In this document: positions 10,609 through 34,486 of the stretch, piece by piece
How positions within the stretch are numbered: position 1 is the stretch's first letter
Layout: every line of letters begins with the position of its first letter
Origin: Candidatus Omnitrophota bacterium
GTDB lineage: Bacteria > Omnitrophota > Gorgyraeia > 2-01-FULL-45-10
Direction: 5' to 3'
Assembly: GCA_041661345.1 (NCBI GenBank)
Contig: JBAZUO010000002.1
Span: 6,447 to 70,446 of the forward strand
DNA: 64,000 nucleotides
The notes under the pieces: model-generated
What the model was told of the DNA's origin: nothing
What the model saw: only the letters and a program-made list of their open reading frames with translations
Databases searched by the model: none
Position numbers and translations under genes: made by a program

Positions 10609-11892
10609 ATGAAATCATACAAGATCAAACCGATAAAAAAACTGTCAGGCGATATAATCCTACCCGGAGATAAATCCATATCTCACAGGGCCGTTATGAT
10701 CGGGGCCATATCACAGGGTGAGACGAGTGTAAGAAATCTTCTTGACTGCGATGATTGCAATTATACCATTCGCGCCTTTAGGAATATGGGCATCCAAATT
10801 AAAAACCATAAGGATAGAACTATAATATCGGGCAGAGGCTTGAGAGGCCTGGTTAAACCGAAGAGTTCGATCAATGTCGGCAACTCCGGGACGACGATCA
10901 GGCTTTTGGCCGGAATTTTATCGGGACAAAATTTTGAAACGGTTCTCGAGGGCGATACGTCTCTATCCAATCGCCCAATGACAAGGGTAGCGGCGCCTCT
11001 GCAGGCGATGGGCGCCGACATAAAAGTTGCCACGGGAGGTTATCCGCCGCTTAAGATTAAGGGCGGCGAACTGCATGCGATCGATTACAGGATGCCGGTA
11101 CCGAGCGCCCAGGTGAAGAGCGCGATTTTGTTCGCGGGATTGTACGCGAAAGGGACGACGACGGTCGAAGAGGTATTCAAAAGCCGCGATCACACGGAGC
11201 GTATGCTTAAGTTGTTTGGTTCCAACATAAAGGTAGATGGTCTTAAGGTCTCGGTTACAGGCGGCGGGGAGCTGACAGGTAAGTCGCTCGAGATCCCCGG
11301 TGATATATCAAGCGCAGGCTTCTTCATGGTGCTCGCAACTCTCCTCGAATCTTCCGCAATTAAAATAAGCAACGTATGCATCAATCCAACGCGGGCCGGT
11401 ATTCTGAATATTATGGTGAGGATGGGTGCCAAAGTAAAGATCATTAACAAACGCGACGTCTTTGAACCGATAGGGGATATAGAGGTTAATTCGAGCGGCA
11501 CCAAGGGTATGGTGATCGAGGAAAATGACATCCCGGGCATTATAGACGAGCTTCCTATAATATTCGTCCTCGCGGCGCTTTCAAAAGGCAAGACCGTGAT
11601 ACGCGGCGCCGAAGAATTAAGGGTTAAGGAGACGGATCGTATTACATCGATGAAGATGAATCTCGAAAAGATGGGCGCCAGAATCGAAGTCAGAAAGAAC
11701 GAGATCGTCATAGACGGGGTTAGCGCTCTCAAGGCCTCGAAGACTTTGAGAAGCTACGGCGATCACAGGACGTGCATGGCGATGACGATAGCCGCGCTTA
11801 CCGCGGAAGGCGAAAGCGAGATCGACGATATTGAGTGTGTCAATAAATCATTCCCGGAATTCTTCAAATATCTGGAGAGGCTGGGAAGATAA
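10609..11892 (+). CDS. aroA: 3-phosphoshikimate 1-carboxyvinyltransferase
   Basis: LPGDKSISHRAVMIGA, NSGTTIRLLAGIL, LRVKETDRI. Confidence 0.95.
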   Translation: MKSYKIKPIKKLSGDIILPGDKSISHRAVMIGAISQGETSVRNLLDCDDCNYTIRAFRNMGIQIKNHKDRTIISGRGLRGLVKPKSSINVGNSGTTIRLLAGILSGQNFETVLEGDTSLSNRPMTRVAAPLQAMGADIKVATGGYPPLKIKGGELHAIDYRMPVPSAQVKSAILFAGLYAKGTTTVEEVFKSRDHTERMLKLFGSNIKVDGLKVSVTGGGELTGKSLEIPGDISSAGFFMVLATLLESSAIKISNVCINPTRAGILNIMVRMGAKVKIINKRDVFEPIGDIEVNSSGTKGMVIEENDIPGIIDELPIIFVLAALSKGKTVIRGAEELRVKETDRITSMKMNLEKMGARIEVRKNEIVIDGVSALKASKTLRSYGDHRTCMAMTIAALTAEGESEIDDIECVNKSFPEFFKYLERLGR

Positions 11893-16055: not shown

Positions 16056-17152
16056 TGCAGGCATCAAAGCGTTTAAAAGATTTTGATATAATGCTCATAG
16101 GGATAGCGCTGTTGATATTTGCCATAGGCATTGTAACGATCTACAGCGCGACGATGGCCAGGGGGCTGGCGCTCGGAGAAAGTTTCGTGTTTAGACAGGT
16201 TAATTGGTTTATTATCGGTATCATATTTCTTGCTTTGACGGTAATGGTCTCATACCAGCGTTTTATAGATATCTCGTATATCATATATACCGTGAATGTT
16301 CTAATGCTCGTGCTTGTGTTGCTCCTGGGCCACGCACGACTTGGTGCGCAAAGATGGTTTTCGATAGGAGGTTTCGCGTTTCAGCCGTCCGAGTTCATTA
16401 AGTTTAGCCTGATACTGGCCCTGTCCAATTATGTCGGAGGGAAAAAAGATTCGATGAGGGACCTAAGGGACCTCATCGTCCCGTGCATATTGATTGGTAT
16501 ACCGTTCGTTCTTGTATTGATGCAGCCGGATCTTGGGACGGCGCTCCTTCTTATCCCGATATTCTTTTCGATACTTATCGTTGGCGGCGCGGACCTTAAA
16601 TATTTAGGCTGGATGATCATGATAGGACTTGCGGGCCTGCCGTTTTTTTGGCATTTCCTGCGTGATTATCAGAAACAGAGGCTCCTCGTATTTTTGAATC
16701 CCAGCGTGGATCCGCTGGGCGCGGGATATACTATCATACAGTCCAAGATCGCGGTTGGATCCGGCGGACTGTGGGGTAAAGGATGGCTATGTGGAACGCA
16801 AAATCAGTTGAACTTTCTTCCCGAGAGGCATACGGATTTCATATTTTCTGTTATAGGAGAGGAGTGGGGGTTATTAGGCGCGCTCGCGATCGTATTCCTA
16901 TATTTTCTTATCGTTAGGCGCGCCTTTACGATCACGACGCTTACGAGCGACTTGTATGGTCAATGTATCGCGACAGGCATCGGCATGCTGATAGCGTTTC
17001 AGGTGATAATAAATATCTCGATGACGATCGGGCTCATGCCGGTAGTCGGCATTCCGCTTCCGCTCGTTAGCTACGGCGGTTCAAGTCTCATCGCAACACT
17101 CGTGGCAATAGGACTGCTAGTGAATGTCGAAATGCGTCGGTCAACGTTTTGA
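16052..17152 (+). CDS. rodA: SEDS-family peptidoglycan polymerase RodA
   Basis: FtsW/RodA/SpoVE pattern: FQPSEFIKF, PDLGTA, LPERHTDFIFSVIGEEWG, PLPLVSYGGSS. Confidence 0.93.
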   Translation: MMQASKRLKDFDIMLIGIALLIFAIGIVTIYSATMARGLALGESFVFRQVNWFIIGIIFLALTVMVSYQRFIDISYIIYTVNVLMLVLVLLLGHARLGAQRWFSIGGFAFQPSEFIKFSLILALSNYVGGKKDSMRDLRDLIVPCILIGIPFVLVLMQPDLGTALLLIPIFFSILIVGGADLKYLGWMIMIGLAGLPFFWHFLRDYQKQRLLVFLNPSVDPLGAGYTIIQSKIAVGSGGLWGKGWLCGTQNQLNFLPERHTDFIFSVIGEEWGLLGALAIVFLYFLIVRRAFTITTLTSDLYGQCIATGIGMLIAFQVIINISMTIGLMPVVGIPLPLVSYGGSSLIATLVAIGLLVNVEMRRSTF

Positions 17153-17168
17153 TGGATATCTTACGATT

Positions 17169-18416
17169 ATGTCAAACAAAATCATAAACTGCATTATAAA
17201 TTTATCGATGTTGTTTTTTGTGATTATATTTATTCTTGTGTTTTTTGAAATATTTCTAAGGATCGCATATCCAAGGTACAGGAACGCGGCAGAAGCGCAG
17301 TTTAGTATGAATCAGTCTAGAATTTTTGAAAATCCTAAAAATACAACATTATCTCGGCAGCACCCTGATTCAAAGAAAAAACATTCAGTAATTCATAATT
17401 CCCTGGGATTTAGACAGCACAGAGAATTTTCAAAAAATAAACCGGAAAATGTAATTCGCATTGGTTTTTTTGGAGATTCGTTTGCGGAAAATTTGGCCAT
17501 GGAATCGCAGTTTTCATTTACAGAGCCTCTCGATTACCTTTTAAATAAGACGGGCGGGAAATACGAAGTAATGAACTTTGGGACTAACGGATATGGCACA
17601 GATCAGATATACCTCCAGTATCTACAGGAAGGCGTAGGATTGGGGTTAGATTTCGTATTCTATATTTATTGCAGCAACGATTTACGAAATATTAATGAGA
17701 ATGACTTATTGAAGCTTGATCAACATGGGAATATTCAGGCTCGGCAATACAGTAATAATAGGTTTATCAGTCTCATCAGCAAACTTTGCATAACCTATTT
17801 TGTTCTGGATCATAGCGAACGCCTGAGAAATAGCCTGAAAATATATCAGGAAAAGGAACAAAATAATCAGCAAAAGGAACAAAAGAAAAGATTTCGCAAT
17901 CCAAGATATGTTGCCATACAAATGGATTTTATAAATGGCGTGGTTACCGATGACCTCAATAAGACGTTAAAATTATTTCTTGCAATCCTTTCCGAAATGA
18001 AAAAAATATGTAATGAGCATAATACCAGATTTTATGTAATTACGCTCCCGAAGGAAAAGGAAAACAGTATGTGTGAATTTTTAGTAAAAAATGGATTTAA
18101 CGCGATAGGCCTTTATGACAAATTTAAAAATATTTATCCGGAAGAAAAAAATTATAGATTTATAAATGATGGTCATTGGAATGAGGAAGGGAATAAGTTG
18201 GCTGCAGCATTTCTATTTAGATTTTTAGCAAAAGAATTATCGATCAGATATTCCGGCGAAGAATTTATTGAGCAGTCTTTATTTGAGTATTATAGTTCTT
18301 TTGAGCCGGGTGTAGTAAATAGTTATTTGATAAAAAAACATAATGATTTCCCTCCAGCTTTAAACCATTACGTTGTATCCAGGTATCTTTCCTTGGAGAA
18401 GAGAGACTTCAATTGA
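17169..18416 (+). CDS. membrane-anchored SGNH/GDSL-type hydrolase family protein
   Basis: N-terminal TM segment, then block I GFFGDSF, block III GTNGYGTD, and block V NDGHWNEEG. I prefer ATG 17169 over the track start 17124, which lies inside rodA. Confidence 0.6.
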   Translation: MSNKIINCIINLSMLFFVIIFILVFFEIFLRIAYPRYRNAAEAQFSMNQSRIFENPKNTTLSRQHPDSKKKHSVIHNSLGFRQHREFSKNKPENVIRIGFFGDSFAENLAMESQFSFTEPLDYLLNKTGGKYEVMNFGTNGYGTDQIYLQYLQEGVGLGLDFVFYIYCSNDLRNINENDLLKLDQHGNIQARQYSNNRFISLISKLCITYFVLDHSERLRNSLKIYQEKEQNNQQKEQKKRFRNPRYVAIQMDFINGVVTDDLNKTLKLFLAILSEMKKICNEHNTRFYVITLPKEKENSMCEFLVKNGFNAIGLYDKFKNIYPEEKNYRFINDGHWNEEGNKLAAAFLFRFLAKELSIRYSGEEFIEQSLFEYYSSFEPGVVNSYLIKKHNDFPPALNHYVVSRYLSLEKRDFN

Positions 18417-20144: not shown

Positions 20145-20173
20145 TTGACAATCACATGTATATATAGTATACT
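20145..20173 (+). promoter_or_regulatory. sigma70-type promoter in front of the GGDEF/pilus locus
   Basis: TTGACA (20145-20150), 17-nt spacer, TATACT (20168-20173). Confidence 0.6.
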
Positions 20174-20204: not shown

Positions 20205-21611
20205 ATGGGGTTTTTTAGGAAGTTGACCGTTATTAATAAAGGGTTAAGATACAAGCTTCTGATCGCCTTCTGTCTTATGTCCATAATACCGCTTTTGGCA
20301 TGTGTTTACGTGATGTCCACCTATCTTTTTCCTCAACTCGATGACCTGCAAACTGTAAGCGTTGTCATCGTCGCGTCGCTCTTCATCGCGTTGCTTGGGC
20401 TATTTTTCGCGAAGAGCCTGATAGATCCCGTTGTCGATATGGCTATAGAGGCAAAAATTATAGCAAGCGGTGATTTTAACAGAAAAGTCGCGGCTCCGTA
20501 CGAGGACGAAGTCGGCAATCTCGCTCAATCCATTAACAATATGACCCAGAAAATAAAGTCGAACATGGAAGAGCTGAAAAGTTATGGCCGAAGGATGAAT
20601 GATGTTAATAGTGAGATACAAAAGAAGATGTTGGTGCTCTCGAGCCTGTTGCAGGTGGGGGATATAATATCTACCGGATCCACCGGCCTGGATTCTACGC
20701 TGGAGGTTGCGCTGGAGAAGGCCGCGTCTATATTCGATACGGGCTATGGGGTGCTTTACGCATCCAAAGGGGAGGGCCTGGATTTTACGGCGAGGGCCTC
20801 CTGCAATTTAAAGAATGAAAATTTAATGAACCTGGTGATAAAGGCGGACGGCCAGGGCATACTCGAAGACGCTATCCGGACCAAGTCGGTAGTTATTATC
20901 GATAAGGCCTCTAAAGCGTCGAAAGAACTATCCGGCTTCAAGACCTCGTCGAATATCGAAAATGCCGTGATAATTCCGCTCTTCTCAAACAAGAGGAACC
21001 TGGGGCTACTGATCCTGGGCAACAGATTGGAAGATTATAAGTTCAAGAATGACGATGTGGACATGGTAAAGGTTTTCGCAAAGCAGATGTCCATTGCCAT
21101 AGAAACAGATGTTTTAAGCAAGAAGGCGACTGAGCTCTCGATAACGGATGACCTTACAGGCTTGTACAACAAGCGCTTCATTTCGACACGCCTGGAGGAG
21201 GAGATAAAAAGAGCGATATTTTATCAGAGGCCGTGCTCGTTTATCATATTCAGCCTTGATGACATAAATGGCTTGCGGCAGGCGCATGGCGAACTGGCGG
21301 TAGAAGAAGCGCTTAAAAAGGTGGCGAAGTCCATAAAGGATAACATACTGCCCATAGGCAAGGCGGCGAGAATTTCCGGATTCGAATTTGCCATATTATT
21401 GCCGGAAAAAAATAAGAAAGAGGCGTCGCACATAGCCGAAGAGATGCGGCATAGAATTGAGGCGACAAATGTGCTAAGGGATGGAAAGATTTCGATGAAA
21501 GTAACGATTGGCCTGGGTGAAAATCCGATCGACGGGGCAACCAGTGATGAGCTTTTTAGAAAAGCGGAGGAATCCATAAGGGAAGCCAGAAATGCTGCAG
21601 GTAAAAGATGA
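20205..21611 (+). CDS. membrane HAMP-GAF protein with a degenerate GGDEF domain
   Basis: Two N-terminal hydrophobic segments, a HAMP-like DEVGNLAQSINNMTQKIK, and a GAF-like middle region. The GGDEF fold (DDLTGLYNKRF) carries SGFEF at nt 21375-21389 in place of GG(D/E)EF. Confidence 0.75.
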   Translation: MGFFRKLTVINKGLRYKLLIAFCLMSIIPLLACVYVMSTYLFPQLDDLQTVSVVIVASLFIALLGLFFAKSLIDPVVDMAIEAKIIASGDFNRKVAAPYEDEVGNLAQSINNMTQKIKSNMEELKSYGRRMNDVNSEIQKKMLVLSSLLQVGDIISTGSTGLDSTLEVALEKAASIFDTGYGVLYASKGEGLDFTARASCNLKNENLMNLVIKADGQGILEDAIRTKSVVIIDKASKASKELSGFKTSSNIENAVIIPLFSNKRNLGLLILGNRLEDYKFKNDDVDMVKVFAKQMSIAIETDVLSKKATELSITDDLTGLYNKRFISTRLEEEIKRAIFYQRPCSFIIFSLDDINGLRQAHGELAVEEALKKVAKSIKDNILPIGKAARISGFEFAILLPEKNKKEASHIAEEMRHRIEATNVLRDGKISMKVTIGLGENPIDGATSDELFRKAEESIREARNAAGKR

Positions 21612-21623
21612 TCGAGGTGTTGC

Positions 21624-22688
21624 ATGCCGAATGATATAAACAAGCTGTTGAAATTGATGTTTGATAAGGGCGCTTCAGACCTTCATATAACCGCGGGTTC
21701 GCCGCCCCAACTGAGGATAGACGAGAATCTCGTGCCGGCAGACGATAAGATACTGACCCCAGCCGATTCCGAAGAACTTATTTACAGCCTGATCTCCGCC
21801 GAGCAGAAGGGGAGGTTCGAGCAGGACCTGGAGCTCGATATGGCATTCGGCGTTAAGGGGTTAGGCCGTTTCAGGGTTAATGTTTTTAAACAGAGGGGAT
21901 CTGTCGCGTCCTCTATCCGTCTTATACCCCATGAGATGTGGTCATTCGAACAGTGCGGCTTACCGGCCAATGTCACGCTGGATCTATGCAACAGGCCGAA
22001 GGGGCTTGTTTTACTTACCGGCGCTACGGGAAGCGGTAAATCAACAAGCCTTGCATCTATGATAGACTGGATAAATTCCCACAGGCCGTGTCATATCGTT
22101 ACGATAGAAGATCCGATAGAATTTGTCCATAAGAATAAGAAGGCGATCGTTAATCAGCGTGAGGTTTACAGCGATACGCATTCGTTCGCGGAATCGCTCA
22201 AGCATGTGCTGAGACAGGATCCCGACGTAATACTTGTAGGCGAGATGAGAGACCTGGAGACGATCGAAGCGGCCCTGATCGTGGCAGAGACGGGCCACCT
22301 GGTATTTGCGACACTTCATACGTCAGACTGCGTCCAGACCATCAATAGGATCGTGGACGTTTTTCCGGCATCCCAGCAGCAGCAGATAAGAACACAGCTG
22401 TCTTTTGTGCTTATAGGTATTATGTCCCAGCAATTGATACCGAAGTTAAAGGGCCCCGGCCGCGCACTTGCCGTGGAGGTTTTAATCGCTACGCCTGCCG
22501 TAAGATCCCTGATCAGAGAATCCAAGGCGCATCAAATATATTCGGTTATGCAGACATGTCAAAAGGACGGGATGAACACGATGAACCAGGCTCTGTATGA
22601 CCTCTATCAGAAGAAACTCATATCGTATGAAGAGGCTTTTGACAGGACGACCGATCAGGAAGATTTGAAGAGAATATTTAAAAAGTAA
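21624..22688 (+). CDS. pilT: type IV pilus retraction ATPase PilT
   Basis: 354 aa with Walker A GATGSGKST, DPDVILVGEMRD, and a PilT-type AVRSLIRESK motif. Confidence 0.92.
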   Translation: MPNDINKLLKLMFDKGASDLHITAGSPPQLRIDENLVPADDKILTPADSEELIYSLISAEQKGRFEQDLELDMAFGVKGLGRFRVNVFKQRGSVASSIRLIPHEMWSFEQCGLPANVTLDLCNRPKGLVLLTGATGSGKSTSLASMIDWINSHRPCHIVTIEDPIEFVHKNKKAIVNQREVYSDTHSFAESLKHVLRQDPDVILVGEMRDLETIEAALIVAETGHLVFATLHTSDCVQTINRIVDVFPASQQQQIRTQLSFVLIGIMSQQLIPKLKGPGRALAVEVLIATPAVRSLIRESKAHQIYSVMQTCQKDGMNTMNQALYDLYQKKLISYEEAFDRTTDQEDLKRIFKK

Positions 22689-22696
22689 GGGTTCAT

Positions 22697-23143
22697 ATGC
22701 CGCCGATCAAAAGGATAGTGACAAAACAACTGGGTGAGCTCCTGGTGGAGAGGGGTATAATTAATGAATCCCAGCTGGAGAAGGCCCTTAGGATCCAAAA
22801 AGATAAGGGCGGGTTGATAGGGCAGATACTCGTAATGCTTGGTTTTGCCAAGGAAGAGGAGATAGCTCAAGCCCTGACGGTCCAATATGGATTTCCATAC
22901 CTTCCGCTGGAGTGTTATGAGATGAATGCCGATGCCGTGAAGATGATACCGGAAAACGTCTGCGTCCAATACAATCTCATAGCGGTTGATAAGATAGGAG
23001 ACACGCTAACCATAGCGATGTCAAATCCGCTGAACTTCCAGGCCGTAGAGGATATAGAAACGCTCACAAAGTGCAAGGTTCAGGTATTTGTCAGTACCAT
23101 GACGGATATAAATAATTCTATAAAAAAACATAATAAAAAATGA
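22697..23143 (+). CDS. stand-alone T2SSE_N / MshEN-like domain protein
   Basis: 148 aa consisting only of a GspE/PilB N-terminal domain. It has the tandem 24-aa motifs QLGELLVERGIINESQLEKALRIQ, KDKGG, LIGQILVMLGFAKEEEIAQALTVQ. There is no ATPase core. Confidence 0.8.
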   Translation: MPPIKRIVTKQLGELLVERGIINESQLEKALRIQKDKGGLIGQILVMLGFAKEEEIAQALTVQYGFPYLPLECYEMNADAVKMIPENVCVQYNLIAVDKIGDTLTIAMSNPLNFQAVEDIETLTKCKVQVFVSTMTDINNSIKKHNKK

Positions 23144-24876
23144 GCGTTGACTTAAAAGATAAACTCACCAAGATACTCATAGAGCGGAAGCTTCTGCAAT
23201 CCAGCGACCTCGAGAAGGCGCTTTCCGTCCAGAAGCAGAGAGGCGGATCTTTAAGCGATATCCTCGTGGAATTAGGCCTCGTTTCAAAGAACGACCTGAT
23301 GGTAGCTATAAGCCACGGGCTGGGCATTCCGCTGATAAATCTCTCCCGGTATAAGATCGATCCCGATGTGATAAAGCTGATCCCAAGAAAGACGGTAAAA
23401 AATTATAAGATAATGCCGATTGCCAAGATGGGCACTACGCTGACGATAGCGATGGCCGATCCTCTGAATGTGTTCGCCTTGGACGACCTTAAGGTCCTGA
23501 CGGGACTAAAAATAAATCCCGTCATAACGACCGACAAGGAGATCTCCGAAGCCATAGGGCGCTATTATGATCAGGATTCTTACGCTGCTATAGAGAAGAT
23601 AGTGGATGACATGTCCACTATCAGCGACATCAAGCTGATCGAAGATGCCGTTCATGGCGTAGAGCAGAATTCGTCAGATATAATGAAGATGACGCTGGAG
23701 GCGCCAGTCGTAAAGATCACAAATCTTCTGCTGACGGAGGCTGTCAACCTGAGGGCGAGCGACGTATTGATCGAACCTATGGAGGACAAGCTGAGGATCA
23801 GGTATAGGGTCGATGGTATATTACAGGAAGGCAGAAATCCGCCCATAGCACTGCATAGCGCTATAGTTTCCAGGCTGAAGGTCGTGTCGGAACTCGACAT
23901 AGCGGAGCGCCGCCTTCCTCAGGACGGAAGATTTAAGGTCAAGCTTCACGGCCGGGAAGTGGATTTCAGAATCTCGGTGCTGCCGACAAGCATGGGAGAA
24001 AAGGTCGCGCTCCGAATACTCGATAAGTCGCAGGCCACGCTCGATATTGATAAGTTAGGTTTTGACCAACTGTCCATAGACCTGATAAAGAAGGAAGCGT
24101 CGAAACCGCACGGAATGATACTCATTTGCGGGCCGACCGGATGCGGTAAGACGACGACGCTTTACTCTGTGCTGGAATATGTTAACTCCCCGGCAAAGAA
24201 TGTGATCACCGTAGAGGATCCGGTTGAATATCAGATCGAAGGCATAAATCAGGTTACGGCCAGGCCCGAGATCGGGCTCAGTTTCGCGAACGCCCTTAGG
24301 TCCATATTGAGACAAGACCCGAACATAATAATGATAGGCGAGATAAGAGATTTTGAAACCGTTGATATCGCGATAAAGGCGGCCCTTACCGGCCACCTCG
24401 TCTTGAGCACACTTCATACCACAACGGCAACCGGATCGATAATCCGATTAGTGAACATGGGGGTGGAACCGTTTCTCATCACATCATCCTTGATTCTCGT
24501 CGGTGCACAAAGGCTCGTGCGTAAGATCTGTCAGCAGTGCAAAGAACCATATGAACTGAGTAAAGACGCTATAGACAAACTCAAGATAAAACCGGATAAG
24601 GGCAAGGTAATTTTCTACCGGGGCAAGGGATGCAGTGCCTGCGGCAATACGGGATATAAAGGCCGCATCGGTTTGTTGGAGGTATTGGTGTTAAGCCCAA
24701 AGATAAAAGCTCTTGTATTGGAAAACGCGCAGGAGTATGTCATAAGAGATCTGGCAAGGAGCGAGGGCATGAAGACACTCAGGGAAAACGGTATACAGAA
24801 CGTTCTGAACGGATTGACAACGATAGACGAAGTCCTTCGCGTTACCGTAGGGGAACAGGACATAGATACGGTGTGA
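23140..24876 (+). CDS. pilB: type IV pilus assembly ATPase PilB/GspE paralogue 1
   Basis: 578 aa with a T2SSE_N domain, Walker A GPTGCGKTT, DPNIIMIGEIRD, and tetracysteine CQQC...CSAC. ATGA overlap with the upstream gene. Confidence 0.92.
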   Translation: MSVDLKDKLTKILIERKLLQSSDLEKALSVQKQRGGSLSDILVELGLVSKNDLMVAISHGLGIPLINLSRYKIDPDVIKLIPRKTVKNYKIMPIAKMGTTLTIAMADPLNVFALDDLKVLTGLKINPVITTDKEISEAIGRYYDQDSYAAIEKIVDDMSTISDIKLIEDAVHGVEQNSSDIMKMTLEAPVVKITNLLLTEAVNLRASDVLIEPMEDKLRIRYRVDGILQEGRNPPIALHSAIVSRLKVVSELDIAERRLPQDGRFKVKLHGREVDFRISVLPTSMGEKVALRILDKSQATLDIDKLGFDQLSIDLIKKEASKPHGMILICGPTGCGKTTTLYSVLEYVNSPAKNVITVEDPVEYQIEGINQVTARPEIGLSFANALRSILRQDPNIIMIGEIRDFETVDIAIKAALTGHLVLSTLHTTTATGSIIRLVNMGVEPFLITSSLILVGAQRLVRKICQQCKEPYELSKDAIDKLKIKPDKGKVIFYRGKGCSACGNTGYKGRIGLLEVLVLSPKIKALVLENAQEYVIRDLARSEGMKTLRENGIQNVLNGLTTIDEVLRVTVGEQDIDTV

Positions 24877-24877
24877 T

Positions 24878-26599
24878 ATGGCTGAATCATTAAAAGAAAA
24901 ACTGATAGATATACTGATAAAGGGAAACCTTGTAAAGCAGAAGGATCTTGACAAGGCCCTCGAAGTTCAGAAGAAATCCGGCGGGAATCTCGGCAAGATA
25001 CTCGTATCAAAGGGGTATATTTCGGAAAAGGACCTTATGGTGTCGATATCGAGGCAGCTCAGTATACCGCCTATAGACTTATCCAAATATAAGATAACGC
25101 CGATGGTCATCCAGCTTATTCCCGAAAAGACCGCCAAAAAGTATTCGCTGATTCCGGTCTCCAAACTTGGTATGACGCTTACAGTGGCAATGGCCGATCC
25201 GTTGAACGTCCTGGCAATGGATGAGGTCAAGATACTTACCAATTACAAAATAGATCCGGTCATTGCCACGGAGAACGACATCAAGGAAGCGATAGCCAGC
25301 TATTACGGTACACATACCCAGGAGATATCGAAGCTTCTGGAAGAGATGCCGCAGGAGGACGTGGAGGTTACCGAGGAAGAAGAAGAGAAAATCGATGTAA
25401 GCGAGGTGGCTGAGGAGAGCCAGAAGGCACCCATAGTTAAGGTGGTGGGGCTTATACTTAATGAAGCGATGAAGCGCCGCGCCAGCGACATACACATAGA
25501 GCCATCCGAGAAATTTTTACGGGTCAGGTACAGAGTAGACGGTACCCTGCATGAGGCACTGACGCTTCCCAAGAAGAACCAGAACGCGGTTATAGCCAGG
25601 GTGAAGATCATGTCGAAGCTGGACATAACAGAAACGAGAATACCGCAGGACGGGCGCTTCAAAATAAGCTTCGAAGGAAAGGAAATAGATTTCAGAGTCT
25701 CTGTGCTTCCGATACAATTCGGCGGCAAGATAGTATTAAGAGCCCTCGATAAATCCAGCTTAAGTCTAGGACTTGAGAAGCTGGGATTTTTGCCCAAGCC
25801 TTTGGCTACTTTTCAAACAGCGCTTAAGAGGCCTTATGGAATGATATTGGTAACCGGTCCGACGGGAAGCGGAAAGTCAACAACTCTATATTCTATTATC
25901 AATCAACTTAATACGCTGGAGCGGAACATCGTGACGCTGGAGGATCCGGTTGAGTATGAACTTGGCGGGATCACACAGATCCAGGCCAAGCCGGAGATAG
26001 GGCTTACGTTTTCTAATGGGCTTAAGTCGGTCTTGAGACAGAGCCCGGATATAGTGATGGTCGGTGAGATTAGAGACTCCGAGACCGCCGACATAGCGAT
26101 AAAGGCGTCTCTTACCGGACAATTGATATTGAGTACGCTGCATACCAATGACGCCGCCGGCGCGATAACGAGGCTTATAGATATGGGGGTGGAACCTTTT
26201 TTGGTATCCACAAGCCTCGTCCTATCTTCAGCGCAAAGACTGATGAGGAAGATCTGCATGAATTGCAGAGAGGCTATCGAAATACCTAAAAGCGTTCTGG
26301 AGAGGATCGGATTAAAACCCGATGAACTTTCAAAAAAGGGCATAAAAAGTTTTTACAAAGGTAGAGGATGCACGAAATGCAATAATACCGGGTACTACGG
26401 CAGGATAGGCATTCTCGAAACACTGCTTCTTGATGATAAGGTCAGGGATATGGTAATGAAAAGAGTTTCCAGCGACGATATAAAAAATTATGCCATAAAA
26501 GAACTCGGCATGTTGACATTGAGGGATAACGCGCTGGAGAATTTTGTTAATGGCATAACGACTCTCGAGGAAGTCATGAGAGTAACTTCGGAGGACTAA
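24878..26599 (+). CDS. pilB: type IV pilus assembly ATPase PilB/GspE paralogue 2
   Basis: 573 aa with a T2SSE_N domain, Walker A GPTGSGKST, SPDIVMVGEIRD, and tetracysteine CMNC...CTKC. Confidence 0.92.
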   Translation: MAESLKEKLIDILIKGNLVKQKDLDKALEVQKKSGGNLGKILVSKGYISEKDLMVSISRQLSIPPIDLSKYKITPMVIQLIPEKTAKKYSLIPVSKLGMTLTVAMADPLNVLAMDEVKILTNYKIDPVIATENDIKEAIASYYGTHTQEISKLLEEMPQEDVEVTEEEEEKIDVSEVAEESQKAPIVKVVGLILNEAMKRRASDIHIEPSEKFLRVRYRVDGTLHEALTLPKKNQNAVIARVKIMSKLDITETRIPQDGRFKISFEGKEIDFRVSVLPIQFGGKIVLRALDKSSLSLGLEKLGFLPKPLATFQTALKRPYGMILVTGPTGSGKSTTLYSIINQLNTLERNIVTLEDPVEYELGGITQIQAKPEIGLTFSNGLKSVLRQSPDIVMVGEIRDSETADIAIKASLTGQLILSTLHTNDAAGAITRLIDMGVEPFLVSTSLVLSSAQRLMRKICMNCREAIEIPKSVLERIGLKPDELSKKGIKSFYKGRGCTKCNNTGYYGRIGILETLLLDDKVRDMVMKRVSSDDIKNYAIKELGMLTLRDNALENFVNGITTLEEVMRVTSED

Positions 26600-26600
26600 G

Positions 26601-27815
26601 GTGGCAAACTTCAAGTATGTCGCTAAGGATCAGGAGGGTAAGAGCGTCACGGGTGTTTTTGAGGCGGCGAACAGGCAGGAGGTTATCAACGCGCTTAGAA
26701 AGAAAGACCTCATAATAGTTTCGGTTGGCGAGGCGTCATCTAAATTTAGCAGCATATTGTCTTTTGGGAGTAAGAAGAAAATAAAACTTGAAGACCTGGT
26801 TGTTTTTTCGCGCCAGCTTTCAACGATGGTCGACGCGGGCATACCGCTCGTTGGAGCTCTCGATATACTTGGCGAGCAGATGGACAATAAGACGTTCGGC
26901 GCTATTATAATAGGTGTCCGCAACGATGTTGAGACGGGTTTAAGCCTTTCCGACGCAATAGGTAAGCACAAAGACGTATTTTCATCTCTTTATGTGAACA
27001 TGGTCAAGGCCGGGGAGTCGAGCGGTATGTTGGATGAGATACTTGATCGTCTTGCCGAATATCTGGAGAAGACGAGCGCTCTTCAACATAAAGTGAAGGG
27101 TGCGCTTGTGTATCCGGCGGTTATTAGCTCTATGGCGCTGGGCATAACATTGATAATGCTTTTAAAGGTTATACCTGTGTTTAAGGATATGTTCGAAGGT
27201 ATGGGTGCAAAGCTTCCGACGCCTACGGCGGTTCTTATAACGGTAAGCGATTTTTTACGGCACTATTTCATCCTTGGAGCCGCGGCCCTGGTGGGCATAT
27301 GGATACTCTTATCGCGATACATAAAAACAGAGAAGGGGCGGCTGCAAGTTGATTCGATCCTGCTTAAAATGCCCATATTCGGTATATTGTTCAGGAAAGT
27401 CGCCATAGGTAAATTTACAAGGACTTTATCAACACTTATCAAGTCAGGCGTTCCGATACTTGCTGCCCTTGAGATAGTGGGCAAGACCGCCGGCAATACG
27501 GTGGTGGAAAAGGCCATAGAAAACGTCCGCTCCAATGTCAGGGAAGGCGAAAACATAGCTGAGCCACTCGCCAGATCTAAAATATTCCCACCCATGGTGA
27601 CGAGGATGGTGTCGGTTGGTGAACAGTCCGGAGAGCTTGAAAAGATGTTGTCAAAGATAGCGGATTTTTATGATGAACAGGTTGATACGGCTGTCGGTTC
27701 TCTTACAAGTATGATGGAACCGCTCATTATAGCGTTCCTGGGGATAGTGATAGGTTCGATCGTTATATGTATGTTCCTGCCAATATTCAAGTTAAGCTCC
27801 ATTGTCAGTTCTTAA
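26601..27815 (+). CDS. pilC: type IV pilus platform protein PilC (GspF family)
   Basis: 404 aa with a duplicated T2SSF domain (FSRQLSTMVDAGIPL and FTRTLSTLIKSGVPI). GTG start after a GAGGA SD. Confidence 0.92.
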   Translation: MANFKYVAKDQEGKSVTGVFEAANRQEVINALRKKDLIIVSVGEASSKFSSILSFGSKKKIKLEDLVVFSRQLSTMVDAGIPLVGALDILGEQMDNKTFGAIIIGVRNDVETGLSLSDAIGKHKDVFSSLYVNMVKAGESSGMLDEILDRLAEYLEKTSALQHKVKGALVYPAVISSMALGITLIMLLKVIPVFKDMFEGMGAKLPTPTAVLITVSDFLRHYFILGAAALVGIWILLSRYIKTEKGRLQVDSILLKMPIFGILFRKVAIGKFTRTLSTLIKSGVPILAALEIVGKTAGNTVVEKAIENVRSNVREGENIAEPLARSKIFPPMVTRMVSVGEQSGELEKMLSKIADFYDEQVDTAVGSLTSMMEPLIIAFLGIVIGSIVICMFLPIFKLSSIVSS

Positions 27816-27853: not shown

Positions 27854-27882
27854 TTGACAATACGGGTTTTGTAGGGTATACT
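27854..27882 (+). promoter_or_regulatory. sigma70-type promoter of the major pilin gene
   Basis: TTGACA (27854-27859), 17-nt spacer, TATACT (27877-27882). It implies a ~170-nt leader before ATG 28059. Confidence 0.6.
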
Positions 27883-29377: not shown

Positions 29378-29962
29378 ATGAGAGGCCGAAAAGGTTTTAC
29401 GCTTGTTGAAATCATGGTGGCCACATTCATAACTTTGTATACCCTGATGGCGGCATGGTCCTCATATATCATGTTCTGGACGTGGTGGCATGAGACGAGC
29501 CCTGAAGTTGAGGCTCAGAGGATGGCCAGGATCACCATATCAGCGATTGTAAATGGTAAAATAGATCCGACGGCCGGGACTTATACCATCGGAACCACGA
29601 CATTTCATAGGCGAAATGGTATAGCACAAGCTACGATGGAGCCATCATTTCCTTCAACGCAAGCTATAAATTTTGGATTGGAACCGGACACCGCGAATGT
29701 AAGGTCGTATTATCTCGGGGTGGATCCCGAGACGAATCATAACGTCGTATATTACAAAGACAGCACTAGTACCGTTAGTAAAATAGATTCAACAATCGGG
29801 ATAACGGATTTGACATTCACGAACGTTTTCAATGGGTCGATAACGACCAACATGATCACGGTTACCGTTACCGTGGACAGGGATGTGATCGATATGGGCG
29901 GTAGAACGCGCACCATACATGTTGTTTATAGTCAACTGGTCTTCTTAAGGAATGTCTCGTAA
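29378..29962 (+). CDS. prepilin-type minor pilin (GspJ/PilW-like)
   Basis: MRGRKG|FTLVEIMVATFITLYTLMAAW. Alternative starts are 29360 and 29327. Confidence 0.8.
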   Translation: MRGRKGFTLVEIMVATFITLYTLMAAWSSYIMFWTWWHETSPEVEAQRMARITISAIVNGKIDPTAGTYTIGTTTFHRRNGIAQATMEPSFPSTQAINFGLEPDTANVRSYYLGVDPETNHNVVYYKDSTSTVSKIDSTIGITDLTFTNVFNGSITTNMITVTVTVDRDVIDMGGRTRTIHVVYSQLVFLRNVS

Positions 29963-31325
29963 AATGAAAAATAAAAAAGGTTTTATACTTGTAATAACGA
30001 CGGCCTTCATTGCATCCCTTCTTGTGGTGGCATTAGCCATCATAGGGATGAGTTGCGGAGAGATTATCCAAACCAGGGTTTACAACGATCAGTCGACCGC
30101 CTATTATGTAGCGCGGTCCGGGGCTGAGATGATGTACAACTACCTTAAAGCCAAGGAGGGCGAAACTATAACATGGCCTCAATCGATGCCGTCGGGGGAT
30201 AGCGTTGTCAGGACTCGCGGCAGCGGCGGAACGATCGTAGGCAATTTTGTGGCAACAGCGGATACAATTTCATCGAATATGTTTGGCATCGTATCAACCG
30301 GCTCCGTCAATGGCAGGACCGCCAAAGTCACCGTTAAATACGGTTGCGATGCGGCATTTGAAAATGGCCGCCCGATCGGGTGTGCCGGCGCCATGTCGCT
30401 TAAAGGAGCCGGCTGGTGGATCTTCAAATCATATGTCCGGGCTGAGGGGCCGCTCGCGAGCGGCTCTGCGATAACATCGAATAATTTCGTCCAGATATCG
30501 GGTACTACCCTGCAGAATCAGACCTTTGAACCGACGAATTTTTGGTGGAAATATAATTCGGCTACAGGTACTTGCAGCACTCCTAAGGCAGTCGGTGATA
30601 CAAACGGCGATAATGCTTATCTGACAGATGCAAATGGTGATGGTAGTATAACGCTTGCGGACGCGGGCGAAAATATTGCGGCGCAGGAAGCCTTTATTAA
30701 CGATGATATCAATAGCGACGGCGTGGTAAACAACAAAGACGCGTTCATTTCTTATTATACGGTTGAGCTCAATCACCAGGGGCTGAATATAGGGAAGAAC
30801 GAGACGCGCTATTACGGCAGTAGCCAGAGTTTTAATTACAATAGTATCCCGACCGGAGTTCCTATAGTATTTGTGAATGGTGATGTTAACATAAGTTTTA
30901 ACAGCACGGCGTGGTGGGCGCAGAATAGTAATAACACCATAGTTGCGACAGGTGATATCAATATAGCTCAACCGACGAATACCGCCGGAAACACGTTAAC
31001 GCTGATATCTTATGGTGATGTGAATACAGGCGGGGTCAATTTTTTCGGCGGAATTAGCGGGAATCTGGTGGTATGTTCGGTGGGGGATTTTAATGCCTAC
31101 TATGGCGGGAAATCGAATGGCGCGATATTTTCCAATGGACAAGTCAATATCGACACCGTGTACCCTATCTCGGGCTTACTCAACCGTGATATTAAAAAGG
31201 GAACGACTAATTGGAGTGATTCCACTAACTGGCCGTTAGGCCTTCCTCAGAATTATGGCAGTTGGCCTTTAAAGTTTGCCATAAAGGCCGATAGCGTCGT
31301 TAAACCGATATGGCAAAGGGAATAA
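29952..31325 (+). CDS. large PilX/GspK-like minor pilin with EF-hand/dockerin-type Ca loops and a beta-helix-like C-terminus
   Basis: KNKKG|FILVITTAF lacks Glu+5. It has a PilX_N-like STAYYVARSGAE and the loops DANGDGSITLAD and DINSDGVVNNKD. The C-terminus has repeats GDVNISF, GDINIAQ, GDVNTGG. Alternative ATG at 29964. Confidence 0.7.
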   Translation: MSRKMKNKKGFILVITTAFIASLLVVALAIIGMSCGEIIQTRVYNDQSTAYYVARSGAEMMYNYLKAKEGETITWPQSMPSGDSVVRTRGSGGTIVGNFVATADTISSNMFGIVSTGSVNGRTAKVTVKYGCDAAFENGRPIGCAGAMSLKGAGWWIFKSYVRAEGPLASGSAITSNNFVQISGTTLQNQTFEPTNFWWKYNSATGTCSTPKAVGDTNGDNAYLTDANGDGSITLADAGENIAAQEAFINDDINSDGVVNNKDAFISYYTVELNHQGLNIGKNETRYYGSSQSFNYNSIPTGVPIVFVNGDVNISFNSTAWWAQNSNNTIVATGDINIAQPTNTAGNTLTLISYGDVNTGGVNFFGGISGNLVVCSVGDFNAYYGGKSNGAIFSNGQVNIDTVYPISGLLNRDIKKGTTNWSDSTNWPLGLPQNYGSWPLKFAIKADSVVKPIWQRE

Positions 31326-31333
31326 ATGATTAA

Positions 31334-31825
31334 ATGAAAAAGAATATCAGGAAATATATAATTACAGCAATTACAGTAGCCGCGGTTGTTATAGTTTTTT
31401 TCTTAGCCGGAAAGCACGGGCGATATGCTGTAAATAAGTTTGAAATAAAAAAGATATCGCATCCGATATTACCCAGAAGCGAAGTGCCTGAGCGTGTTAT
31501 CTATAGTATCAATGATGTGAAAAAACCTTTGGCGGATGGACCCGCGGAAAAGGTCAATGACCTTGAGTCGATGTATAAAAAATATCCCAAAGAACGCGCC
31601 GGTATAAACATGATAGAGGAATGGTCGAAGGTGAAGCCCGAAGACAAGGCCGAGATGGCTAAAGGCATCACGGGAGCCATAAAAGAATCGGAAGAGAAGC
31701 TGATGGAGAACCCGGATGACAAACGCGCGAAGTCGAAATTGATCATATCGCAGATGCTGCAAAAATTGATGGCCAGCAATTTTAATTACAAGATTAAAGA
31801 GCAAGAGGCGGGCGATGGCAGATAA
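31334..31825 (+). CDS. hypothetical membrane-anchored charged protein in the pilus locus
   Basis: N-terminal TM segment IITAITVAAVVIVFFLA followed by a K/E-rich region. I recognise no family. Confidence 0.5.
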   Translation: MKKNIRKYIITAITVAAVVIVFFLAGKHGRYAVNKFEIKKISHPILPRSEVPERVIYSINDVKKPLADGPAEKVNDLESMYKKYPKERAGINMIEEWSKVKPEDKAEMAKGITGAIKESEEKLMENPDDKRAKSKLIISQMLQKLMASNFNYKIKEQEAGDGR

Positions 31826-32816
31826 CAAGGCCGCCAGGGTGGGCCTGGATATAGGCACGGACGCTGTTAAGATAGTCGCGGCCTCCTCCGCGGCCGATAA
31901 GACTACGCTCATAGCCCTTGGTATGAAAGATATACGCGGTGTGTCACGCCAGGAACTGCCGGAAGTCATAAAACAGCTTGCAGCAACCGCCAAAATATCA
32001 CAAAAGGATGTAAACATATCTATCTCGGGCTCATCGGTGATAGCGAGATTCATAACGATGCCGAAGATGGACAAGGAGGCCTTAAAGGGCGCAATAAGGT
32101 TCGAGGCCGAGAAATTTATACCGTTCGATATAAATGACTGCATGGTGGATTTTCAGGTGATGGAGAGGGATAAGGCCGAAAATAAGCTTAACATACTTCT
32201 CGTAGCGGCTAAAAAAGAGGTTGTCCTGGAAAAGATAAAAATCGCGGAAGCGGCCGGATTTTCTGTACGGTTAGTGGACGTAGACGGTTTCGCGCTGGCC
32301 AACAGTTTTTTTAAGAATTTTCCTGCTCTCGAGCCGGACAAGGCATGCGCCCTTCTGAATATAGGCGCAACTTTTACGAACCTATGCATACTAAAAGGCG
32401 GTTCGCTTTATTTTTCAAGGGACGTGGCTTTGGGCACCAACGAATTCTCGACTTCGATCGCAAAAAAATTAAATGTGGATCGAAAGGCCGCGGACGAACT
32501 ATCGGTGTCTGCCGGGCCCAAGGCCGCGGAAGTAACGGATTGTATGAAAACGGTTTTTGGCAATCTTCTCGAAGAGGTCAAGCTCTCTTTTAATTATTAT
32601 GAAAATCAGGGCGGCAAGAATATAGATGAAGTATATATATCGGGTGGAGGCGGCAGCCTCTTAAGTATAGCCGAGGTATTCGCGGAGTCCTTGGGATCGA
32701 AGCCATCTATCTGGAAACCGCTTGAGTTTATGGGTAAGCCGGCTGCAGGTATCGATGGAGAGCTTTTGGCGCACGAAAGTTTCTTTGCGATAGCGGCCGG
32801 CCTTGCGTTGAGATAA
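31815..32816 (+). CDS. pilM: type IV pilus assembly protein PilM (actin-like)
   Basis: VGLDIGTDAVKIVA, an FtsA/PilM-like fold, and YISGGGGSL. Confidence 0.88.
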   Translation: MADNKAARVGLDIGTDAVKIVAASSAADKTTLIALGMKDIRGVSRQELPEVIKQLAATAKISQKDVNISISGSSVIARFITMPKMDKEALKGAIRFEAEKFIPFDINDCMVDFQVMERDKAENKLNILLVAAKKEVVLEKIKIAEAAGFSVRLVDVDGFALANSFFKNFPALEPDKACALLNIGATFTNLCILKGGSLYFSRDVALGTNEFSTSIAKKLNVDRKAADELSVSAGPKAAEVTDCMKTVFGNLLEEVKLSFNYYENQGGKNIDEVYISGGGGSLLSIAEVFAESLGSKPSIWKPLEFMGKPAAGIDGELLAHESFFAIAAGLALR

Positions 32817-34120: not shown

Positions 34121-34486
34121 GTGAAAAGAACAATTCTTACATGCTTGCTGATTTGCTTAGGTATGGTCCCGATGGCCGAATCCCAAATTTTTAGATACGA
34201 GTCCCACGGTAAGCGCGATCCGTTTGTGCCGCTGATCGGCCAGGACAAGGCCGCGGCAGCGGGATTGATAGACGTAACCTCCGTCGAAGATATAAAGATC
34301 GAAGGTATCGCCGTAAGGGCGGACGGTAAAAGGACGGCGATCATAAACGGCGAGCTGATGAAAGAAAATGATAAGGTAGGAGAGGTCGAGGTGGTAAAGA
34401 TCGATCCGAGATCAGTAACTATTTTGATAAGCGGTAAAGAGTTTAAGGTAAAATTGCCCGAAGAAGGAGGATCAAAGAGTGAATAA
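34121..34486 (+). CDS. pilP: PilP-like small periplasmic protein
   Basis: Signal-like N-terminus, a KRDPFVPL motif, and its position directly upstream of the secretin. GTG start. Confidence 0.6.
   Translation: MKRTILTCLLICLGMVPMAESQIFRYESHGKRDPFVPLIGQDKAAAAGLIDVTSVEDIKIEGIAVRADGKRTAIINGELMKENDKVGEVEVVKIDPRSVTILISGKEFKVKLPEEGGSKSE

Follow-up and report, generated by a model that had tools for sequence, protein, structure and literature searches.

The window analysed here, a stretch of 64,000 nucleotides of Candidatus Omnitrophota bacterium DNA (contig JBAZUO010000002.1, positions 6,447 to 70,446 of the forward strand), carries a type IV pilus locus in which a short gene, mshEN, is placed between the gene for the retraction ATPase PilT and two paralogous genes for the extension ATPase PilB. 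We found that mshEN encodes an MshEN domain on its own, that it is kept as a separate gene next to pilB in all loci compared, and that positions expected to contact cyclic di-GMP (c-di-GMP) are largely conserved in its product and lost from the cognate motors. What appears to be new, judging from the sequence comparisons, is a conserved, phylum-wide operon component whose ligand site is complementary to the degraded sites of its motors. We suggest that the stand-alone protein serves as a receptor for c-di-GMP whose trans targets are the PilB extension motors and not PilT, a reading whose chances we see as evenly balanced. Both the binding of c-di-GMP and the interaction with the motors are steps that we infer.

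The mshEN gene (22697..23143, + strand) starts with an ATG that is preceded at 6 nt by a Shine-Dalgarno-like AAGGG, and it encodes 148 aa; coordinates, start and length are all as claimed by the original prediction, a reading of this stretch from its letters and open reading frames (ORFs). It follows pilT (21624-22688) and precedes the two pilB paralogues, pilB1 (23140-24876) and pilB2 (24878-26599). The TGA stop of mshEN shares the tetranucleotide ATGA (23140..23143) with the ATG of pilB1, a candidate for translational coupling. Pfam and NCBIfam profile searches place MshEN as the sole domain in the protein. PF05157 (MshEN) matches residues 64-145 (58.1 bits, gathering cut-off 23.1), and NF053729, a 53-residue model of the MshE-type c-di-GMP motif, matches residues 11-63 from end to end (profile positions 1-53 of 53, 62.7 bits versus a cut-off of 38, E = 2e-17). 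The T2SSE ATPase domain PF00437 finds no match in the protein in the Pfam search, and neither a PilZ nor a degenerate EAL domain is among the Pfam and NCBIfam matches. TIGR02538 aligns over profile positions 2-137 of 564 only (79 bits, cut-off 676). The protein is a member of the MshEN family and not a PilB. The name 'PilB' that source records give to homologues is a mis-annotation, because the protein has no ATPase domain and ends at residue 148 with a conserved stop. Its N-terminus, MP..KRIV.KQLG, is kept across the stand-alone orthologues.

The predicted fold agrees with this assignment. An AlphaFold2 model built from 35 sequences (mean predicted local distance difference test score, pLDDT, 86.3) has four helices (residues 12-18, 24-37, 41-47 and 53-64) followed by an alpha/beta subdomain with strands at 94-100, 103-108 and 127-132 and flanking helices; pLDDT is 86-95 at residues 61-140 and 78 at the C-terminal tail. 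The top match of the model in a Foldseek search of the PDB is 5htl_B, the MshE N-domain of Vibrio cholerae with bound c-di-GMP (E = 9.7e-13). The two superpose over 137 columns with template modelling (TM) scores of 0.78/0.82, a root-mean-square deviation of 2.4 Å and 32% identity, and both the four-helix N-subdomain and the alpha/beta C-subdomain of the model are included in the superposition. The runners-up are GSPII-A, -B and -C of Thermus thermophilus PilF, the PilB N-domain of Xanthomonas citri (in complex with PilZ) and the XpsE N-domain. Domain models and fold thus bear out the earlier view that the protein is only the N-terminal domain of a GspE/PilB ATPase. The C-subdomain also aligns to the N1 domains of EpsE/GspE solved with EpsL/GspL (2bh1, 4pht), a weak match when taken alone (E 0.09-0.95). 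In the model, the subdomain formed by residues 64-148 is a candidate protein-protein interaction surface.

The c-di-GMP motif occupies residues 11-63 (nt 22727-22885). It consists of copy 1, QLGELLVERGIINESQLEKALRIQ (residues 11-34, 22727..22798), the five-residue spacer KDKGG (residues 35-39, 22799..22813) and copy 2, LIGQILVMLGFAKEEEIAQALTVQ (residues 40-63, 22814..22885); the MshEN_C/T2SSE_N1-type alpha/beta subdomain (residues 64-148, 22886..23140), seen with PF05157 and in the AlphaFold2 model, makes up the rest. Copy 1 fits the published motif at all specified positions save position 1, which is Gln. In copy 2, three residues depart from the strict motif: position 1 is Leu (not Arg), position 12 is Ala and position 17 is Ile, the last two changes being conservative. 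Gly at positions 3 and 10, the hydrophobic and Leu positions and the terminal Gln are present in both. The tandem motif is essentially intact, with Gln in copy 1, as the original prediction had it; the departures in copy 2 had been overlooked. Neither copy fits the patterns of Wang et al., strict or relaxed ([RKPN]hG..), and this is solely through position 1. Since these patterns miss both copies, we relied on NF053729 and on residue-by-residue comparison. When Gln was allowed at position 1, a scan of the whole window with the loosened pattern found both copies in the mshEN ORF only, and the sole other match was copy 2 of PilB2.

For comparison we used 25 distinct loci, the window included, whose stand-alone proteins share 39-100% identity. 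Gly3 is invariant in the stand-alone family (26/26 in both copies), Gln24 of copy 1 is found in 25/26 and the spacer has five residues in 25/26. Position 1 is variable, being Q, P, K, L or R in copy 1 and L, F, Y or R in copy 2. The published sets for this position are R in the strict motif, R/K/L in the extended consensus (PMC11731258) and [RKPN] in the relaxed search (PMC5013675). The Leu of copy 2 falls inside the extended consensus; the Gln of copy 1 falls outside every published set, and the P, K, L and R that orthologues have there are all inside. In MshEN and GSPII-B, the ligand is held by the backbone amides of Leu2 and Gly3; Gln24 contacts the phosphate, two Leu triads stack on the guanines, and residue 1 caps each guanine (PMC11731258). 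All of these positions except position 1 are kept in the 148-aa protein. GSPII-B of PilF has Leu at position 1 of copy 2 (L196), is arginine-free and binds with a dissociation constant of 6 nM, and its authors widen the consensus to (R/K/L)LG (PMC11731258). By analogy, the Leu of copy 2 would be compatible with high-affinity binding of c-di-GMP. We consider it likely from these comparisons that the 148-aa protein binds c-di-GMP, and the stand-alone family is probably of the c-di-GMP-binding type.

We then located the tandem motif in all stand-alone proteins and PilB N-domains of the 25 loci (two fragments of frameshifted genes are excluded from the PilB1 count). In the window, PilB1 has KLTKILIERKLL.. 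and SLSDILV..HG, and its c-di-GMP site is degenerate in both copies; PilB2 has KLIDILIKGNLV.. and NLGKILV..RQ, with copy 1 degenerate and copy 2 intact. The motif glycines had been reported as lost from the first copy of both PilBs, which is correct, and the loss in PilB1 goes beyond that claim in extending to copy 2. The same pattern is found across the loci. Gly3 is present in copy 1 and copy 2 of 26 and 26 of the 26 stand-alone proteins, of 1 and 1 of the 23 PilB1 N-domains and of 0 and 11 of the 18 PilB2 N-domains, and Gly3 together with Gln24 is kept in both copies of 24, 0 and 0 proteins, respectively. No PilB1 N-domain (n = 23) retains Gln24 in copy 2, and this copy usually opens with S-L-S. 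GSPII-A loses binding altogether through a Ser at position 1, and a Gly-to-Ala change at position 3 weakens it ~30-fold (PMC12002112). The hydrophobic frame of the motif is common to all three groups; hence it is the ligand-contacting residues that set the stand-alone family apart. The putative ligand site of the stand-alone proteins is under selection and is complementary to the degraded sites of the PilBs.

The PilBs themselves look functional. PilB1 and PilB2 are 50% identical overall, and the catalytic Glu, Walker B and two CxxC pairs are present in each. They differ in Walker A, which is GPTG(C/S)GKTT in PilB1 and the canonical GPTGSGKST in PilB2, and in the His box, which is LHTTTA.GS in PilB1 (LHTTTATGS in the window) and LHTNDA.GA in PilB2; in each case these features are shared with the orthologues in L001-L029, the designations of the loci compared. 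The two proteins are probably both active but specialised extension motors.

Two loci are informative about the relation between the stand-alone protein and the motors. In L029 (7001-10405), the stand-alone protein has canonical RIG../RVG.. motifs and a normal TAA stop. The PilB1 orthologue of this locus, a 413-aa ATPase with 51% identity to PilB1 and 46% to PilB2, starts at the linker before N2 and is without the N1/MshEN domain, and the PilB2 orthologue has lost the four-helix subdomain. From its sequence, the stand-alone protein would thus provide the only MshEN c-di-GMP site of the L029 module. In locus L027, the copy 5' of pilB1 is joined by a second stand-alone MshEN gene (11034-11486; 150 aa), which is flanked by pilB2 and pilC and has LLGQILL.. 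and YIGDILI.. as its motifs.

The gene is conserved far beyond the window. A search of 5.8 billion proteins returned 2,924 homologues; the best 120 of them are 146-157 aa long and 77-100% identical, and the named ones among these 120 come from metagenome-assembled genomes (MAGs) of Candidatus Omnitrophota. Scanned without a profile, 1.84 billion 50%-identity representatives yielded 20,153 matches. Of the best 150, 63 do not exceed 200 aa and have no ATPase domain, 67 are longer and without an ATPase domain (47 of them with several MshEN domains), and only 20 have one; some of the short representatives lie on contigs of ~1 kb and may be truncated. All 25 loci have a separate ORF of 145-158 aa with its own stop codon directly 5' of a PilB-type ATPase gene, and the 4-nt overlap of mshEN with pilB is also found in L001, L003, L005, L006, L008, L021 and L025. 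We estimated non-synonymous (dN) and synonymous (dS) divergence with a re-implementation of the Nei-Gojobori method; dS is saturated in most pairs, and dN carries the comparison. The stand-alone MshEN has the lowest or joint-lowest dN in the operon (0.09-0.14, versus 0.10-0.18 for PilT, 0.13-0.20 for PilB1, 0.11-0.18 for PilB2, 0.12-0.21 for PilC and 0.23-0.35 for an upstream GGDEF protein), and its dN/dS is ~0.06 in the two pairs with unsaturated dS. The mshEN gene is under strong purifying selection.

These data bear on whether mshEN could be the 5' fragment of a disrupted pilB, either a pseudogene or an assembly artefact, the finding in related genomes that the original prediction had named as its own refutation. 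Labels such as 'type IV pilus assembly protein PilB' or 'GspE, partial' in JGI and some NCBI records of homologues would fit a fragment, as would the location of certain short, possibly truncated representatives on contigs of ~1 kb. Against it, relatives have a conserved separate ORF with its own stop in 25/25 loci, followed by complete pilB genes. No ATPase-coding remnant is found behind mshEN in any frame, and pilB1 begins at the overlap. Between the stand-alone protein and the adjacent PilB N-domains, identity is only 33-36%, compared with 57% between the N-domains of PilB1 and PilB2 and with 39-40% between the stand-alone protein and Geobacter PilB N-domains. The low identity to the adjacent N-domains therefore points to an old separate lineage and not to a recent fragment, and no full-length MshEN-ATPase fusion of this gene was seen among the Omnitrophota relatives examined. 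Length conservation, synteny, the dN/dS of ~0.06 and the 33-36% identity together lead us to reject a pseudogene or fragment, which we regard as extremely improbable.

All named relatives down to 39% identity belong to Omnitrophota, and most metagenomic matches carry no taxonomy. The same module is present, with 74-82% identity to the window protein, on two contigs from MAGs labelled 'uncultured Planctomycetia' (L010, CAZYZC010000125.1; L014, CAZHIO010000185.1), which are probably mis-binned or mislabelled Omnitrophota. One short match annotated as 'Wallbacteria GspE, partial' may be a fragment, its contig being just 1.4 kb long. The stand-alone MshEN in a type IV pilus module is apparently phylum-wide in Omnitrophota.

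The genes 5' of mshEN are less constant than pilB. Only the closer clade and L028 have pilT placed between the GGDEF gene and mshEN, and pilT is missing from the module in 8 of the 25 loci (L017-L020, L025, L026, L027 and L029). PilT is an unlikely target, because pilT is absent from the module in divergent relatives and the adjacency of mshEN and pilB never breaks (25/25), and we disfavour it as a candidate. The original prediction had allowed the detached domain to act in trans on PilB1, PilB2 or PilT. Of these options, the PilB side gains from the comparison, still as something we infer, and PilT does not.

In most loci, a HAMP-GAF-GGDEF gene is found 5' of mshEN. It heads the same gene string in the window (20205..21611, + strand; Pfam HAMP, GAF and GGDEF), where it had gone unmentioned by the original prediction, and it encodes a membrane-anchored protein of 468 aa with two N-terminal hydrophobic segments. 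Elsewhere its place is taken by a 304-aa GGDEF protein (L025), a 1,364-aa GGDEF-AAA_16-HEAT protein (L029), a receiver domain (REC) protein (L026) or a GAF protein (L028), and L027 has neither a GGDEF gene nor any other signalling gene in this place. The GGDEF-family gene overlaps mshEN by 4 nt in L020 and L025. Compared with PleD, the GGDEF domain in the window has SGFEF for GGEEF and LPIG for the RxxD of the I-site, and the equivalents of PleD D327, K332 and N335 are S, N and R. Among orthologues, the signature ranges from GGDEF, SGDEF or AGDEF through to DSDSL or DENIL, and the evolutionary rate of this gene is two to three times that of the other genes of the module. We reject the upstream protein as a local source of c-di-GMP here, given SGFEF, the lack of RxxD and the changed N335, D327 and K332 equivalents. 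From its sequence, a role as sensor or scaffold suits it better than that of a local cyclase.

The motif, fold and conservation of the four-helix N-subdomain suggest that it would bind one c-di-GMP through its tandem 24-residue motifs. The ligand may then reorient the N-subdomain against the T2SSE_N1-type C-subdomain; in PilF GSPII-B the ligand is known to reorient the two subdomains, and binding by this domain alone is as good as by full-length PilF (PMC11731258). The C-subdomain would in turn engage an extension motor or its docking site on PilM/PilC. Among the motors, PilB1 comes first as a target because the ATGA overlap is a candidate for translational coupling, and PilB2 is possible. Acting in this way, the trans protein would make up for the second-messenger input lost from the N-domains of the PilBs themselves, and the upstream membrane protein with HAMP, GAF and degenerate GGDEF domains would be the likely signal-input partner of the module. 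The trans reading is strengthened by the complementary degeneracy across the 25 loci and by the PilB1 of L029, which has no N-domain.

Several observations weigh against this proposal. The Gln at position 1 of copy 1, a feature of this clade, lies outside the strict, extended and relaxed sets alike. In PilF GSPII-A, restoring a perfect motif does not restore binding, which was regained only when the inter-subdomain contacts and the extended, N-capped helix 1 were altered as well (PMC12002112). Motif integrity is therefore necessary but not sufficient. Both PilBs also pass the NF053729 cut-off (43.9 and 51.9 bits), which makes this model useless for discriminating binders from non-binders, and copy 2 of PilB2 is intact, so that some residual c-di-GMP binding by the PilBs may persist. 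No GGDEF, EAL or HD-GYP candidate other than the degenerate GGDEF domain is found in the 64-kb window, which thus shows no evident source of c-di-GMP. Finally, the effect could be activation or inhibition, and the physical partner could be PilB1, PilB2, PilM or PilC.

Other roles for a stand-alone MshEN can be considered. The free N1-type subdomain could occupy the docking site on PilM/PilC or cap the PilB hexamer under the control of c-di-GMP, and so block or select a motor (PilB1, PilB2 or PilT) at the platform; the protein would then be a negative or switching regulator and not a surrogate N-domain. The N1 domains of GspE/EpsE do bind GspL/EpsL, which are PilM homologues, and the structures 2bh1 and 4pht align to the C-subdomain (PMC6325625). 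A selector would be useful where two PilB paralogues with different His boxes coexist, L027 has two stand-alone MshEN genes beside its two PilBs, and the effect on the motors may be of either sign. Substitution, rather than competition, better fits the loss of N1 from the L029 PilB1 while the stand-alone protein is kept. Moreover, translational coupling to pilB1 suggests stoichiometric co-assembly, and no GSPII domain of PilF is required for PilMN binding (PMC6325625). We hold such a decoy or gatekeeper to be unlikely. Quite unlikely, in our view, is a ligand-independent subunit or adaptor of the pilus motor, in which the motif is kept for the sake of the four-helix bundle and c-di-GMP is not bound. 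The Gln of copy 1, outside the published consensus, speaks for such a protein. GSPII-A provides a precedent for an MshEN fold that does not bind even with a restored motif (PMC12002112), the PilB N-domains, which probably do not bind, retain the hydrophobic frame as well, and the window shows no active diguanylate cyclase. What is kept in the stand-alone proteins and lost in the PilBs, however, are the ligand-contacting Gly3 and Gln24 and not the hydrophobic residues of the bundle (PMC11731258), and position 1 in orthologues is P, K, L or R, as in published binder sets. The AlphaFold2 model has disorder at residues 1-9 and the start of helix 1 at residue 12; in this it looks like the binders and not like GSPII-A with its N-terminally extended helix 1, though this is weak evidence.

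The main interaction might also not be with the PilBs at all, if the protein is the output or partner of the upstream HAMP-GAF-degenerate GGDEF sensor or a c-di-GMP buffer. A GGDEF-family gene is present in the module of most loci, either adjacent to mshEN or across pilT; the two overlap by 4 nt in L020 and L025, and the upstream gene in L026 and L028 still encodes a signalling protein (REC and GAF, respectively). On the other hand, this gene is replaceable (GGDEF, REC or GAF) and in L027 it is absent, whereas the downstream pilB is invariant. Its dN of 0.23-0.35 versus 0.09-0.14 for MshEN would be unexpected for an obligate tight pair, and we consider this explanation very unlikely. A more speculative extension of the trans receptor, to which we give little credence, is an exchangeable c-di-GMP-loaded 'N1 subunit' shared by PilB1 and PilB2, which would make it a motor-selection switch at PilM/PilC. 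The choice of motor would then depend, on the same slim chance, on the level of the second messenger and the state of the upstream membrane sensor, and L029 might represent a split ATPase domain gone to completion, with a PilB that has no N-domain of its own.

The surrounding genes form a complete type IVa pilus locus, in which pilT, pilB1, pilB2, pilC and pilM are on the + strand. PilT (354 aa) is identified by TIGR01420 (478 bits, cut-off 319), and PilB1 (578 aa) and PilB2 (573 aa) are matched by TIGR02538 with 648 and 656 bits, respectively. They are followed by the platform protein PilC (26601..27815, 404 aa; two repeats of Pfam T2SSF). The six genes GGDEF-pilT-mshEN-pilB1-pilB2-pilC are separated by 12, 8, -4, 1 and 1 nt. 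They likely form one operon, because these gaps are short and a sigma-70-like promoter candidate, TTGACA-17-TATACT with 11/12 matches, is found at 20145..20173 on the + strand (a consensus match only). A second site of the same form (27854-27882, TTGACA-17-TATACT, 11/12 matches) lies between pilC and the first pilin gene, and suggests that the pilins may be transcribed apart from the motor genes. Behind pilC are four N_methyl pilin genes, a 457-aa ORF, and genes for PilM, PilN, PilO and a secretin (34479-36188). PilN is a tentative assignment, with 21.1 bits in Pfam, just under the 22.8-bit gathering threshold. The 457-aa ORF (29952-31325) has no family match and an N-terminal hydrophobic segment; its product may be a large minor pilin or a tip protein. 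PilM (31815..32816, 333 aa) matches PF11104 PilM_2 with 166.9 bits and T2SSL weakly. It is a candidate docking partner for an N1-type domain, by analogy with the GspE-N1/GspL and PilF/PilMN data (PMC6325625). The genes mreD, PBP2, rodA and a radical-SAM gene precede the pilus locus. Between rodA and the radical-SAM gene there is a 430-aa ORF (17124-18416) without a Pfam match, with an N-terminal hydrophobic segment and a GDSF block that recalls SGNH hydrolases. This ORF would be a lineage-specific insertion, since it is absent from that place in L001, L003 and L005.

The MshEN domain of V. cholerae MshE (5HTL; PMC5013675) has the same fold as the window protein and the same arrangement of two 24-residue motifs with a five-residue spacer, Gly3, Gly10, Leu triads and Gln24. 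In MshE it is the N-terminus of a full ATPase, whereas here it is a separate 148-aa polypeptide, and the position-1 arginines R9 and R38 are replaced by Gln and Leu at 32% overall identity. GSPII-B of T. thermophilus PilF (8PDK; PMC11731258) likewise has an arginine-free site with Leu at position 1 of copy 2. Unlike the window protein, it is one of three tandem N-domains fused to an ATPase, has Lys and not Gln at the start of copy 1, and is only 23-24% identical when the structures are aligned. In the FimX-PilZ-PilB system of X. citri and the FimX-PilB system of Pseudomonas aeruginosa (PMC8389850; PMC11656802), the ND0/MshEN_N site of PilB is degenerate and c-di-GMP input reaches the motor through a separate protein that docks on it; for such PilBs the input comes via FimX, whether or not PilZ takes part (PMC8389850). 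The FimX sensor is a degenerate EAL domain, bridged in Xanthomonas by a non-binding PilZ. Here the sensor would be an MshEN, a paralogue of the very domain that it would complement; it has no homology to FimX, and the resemblance is functional only. The C-subdomain (residues ~64-148) has the same N1 fold as GspE/EpsE in complex with GspL/EpsL (2BH1, 4PHT), with the weak match noted above (E 0.09-0.95), but the N1 domain of GspE/EpsE is a covalent part of its ATPase and is without a c-di-GMP bundle. N1 of GspE/EpsE docks on GspL/EpsL, and in PilF GSPII-C, the GSPII domain nearest the ATPase, is needed for stimulation by PilMN (PMC6325625).

Wang et al. (2016) catalogued MshEN domains fused to ATPases, glycosyltransferases, REC, HD-GYP, CheA and others, and their table has no row for MshEN alone (PMC5013675). 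Two of their proteins are likewise without an ATPase, P. aeruginosa PA3740 (MshEN plus a diverged T2SSE_N1), which is listed as experimentally characterised, and Cyanothece cce_1044 ((MshEN_N)2) (PMC5013675). By their descriptions, neither is a plain MshEN_N plus T2SSE_N1 in a pil operon beside pilB. A characterised stand-alone full MshEN in a pilus locus was not known to the original prediction, and we found none in the searchable literature, nor any description of pilus regulation in Omnitrophota. Proteins with PF05157 as their only domain are listed in domain databases, and the architecture itself is thus not unseen. Many metagenomic proteins in which no T2SSE ATPase is detected (P0125, P0128, P0130, P0138, P0140 and others) have 2-6 tandem MshEN domains; one of 473 aa has 3 and one of 1,325 aa has 6, and some may be truncated gene calls. 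These tandem MshEN-only proteins are another uncharacterised architecture.

The role of the N1/MshEN domain of PilB-type ATPases is an acknowledged gap, as is the way in which c-di-GMP binding is coupled to extension. The locus described here is a natural split system in which the domain could be added, removed or mutated in trans in vitro without re-engineering the ATPase. With it, a stand-alone form joins the architectures of MshEN, which is among the few c-di-GMP receptor domains that are widespread, and the names 'PilB' and 'hypothetical protein' that databases give to this family are wrong or uninformative. Overall, the comparisons suggest that c-di-GMP control of type IV pili may be a phylum-wide trait of Omnitrophota, an uncultured group.

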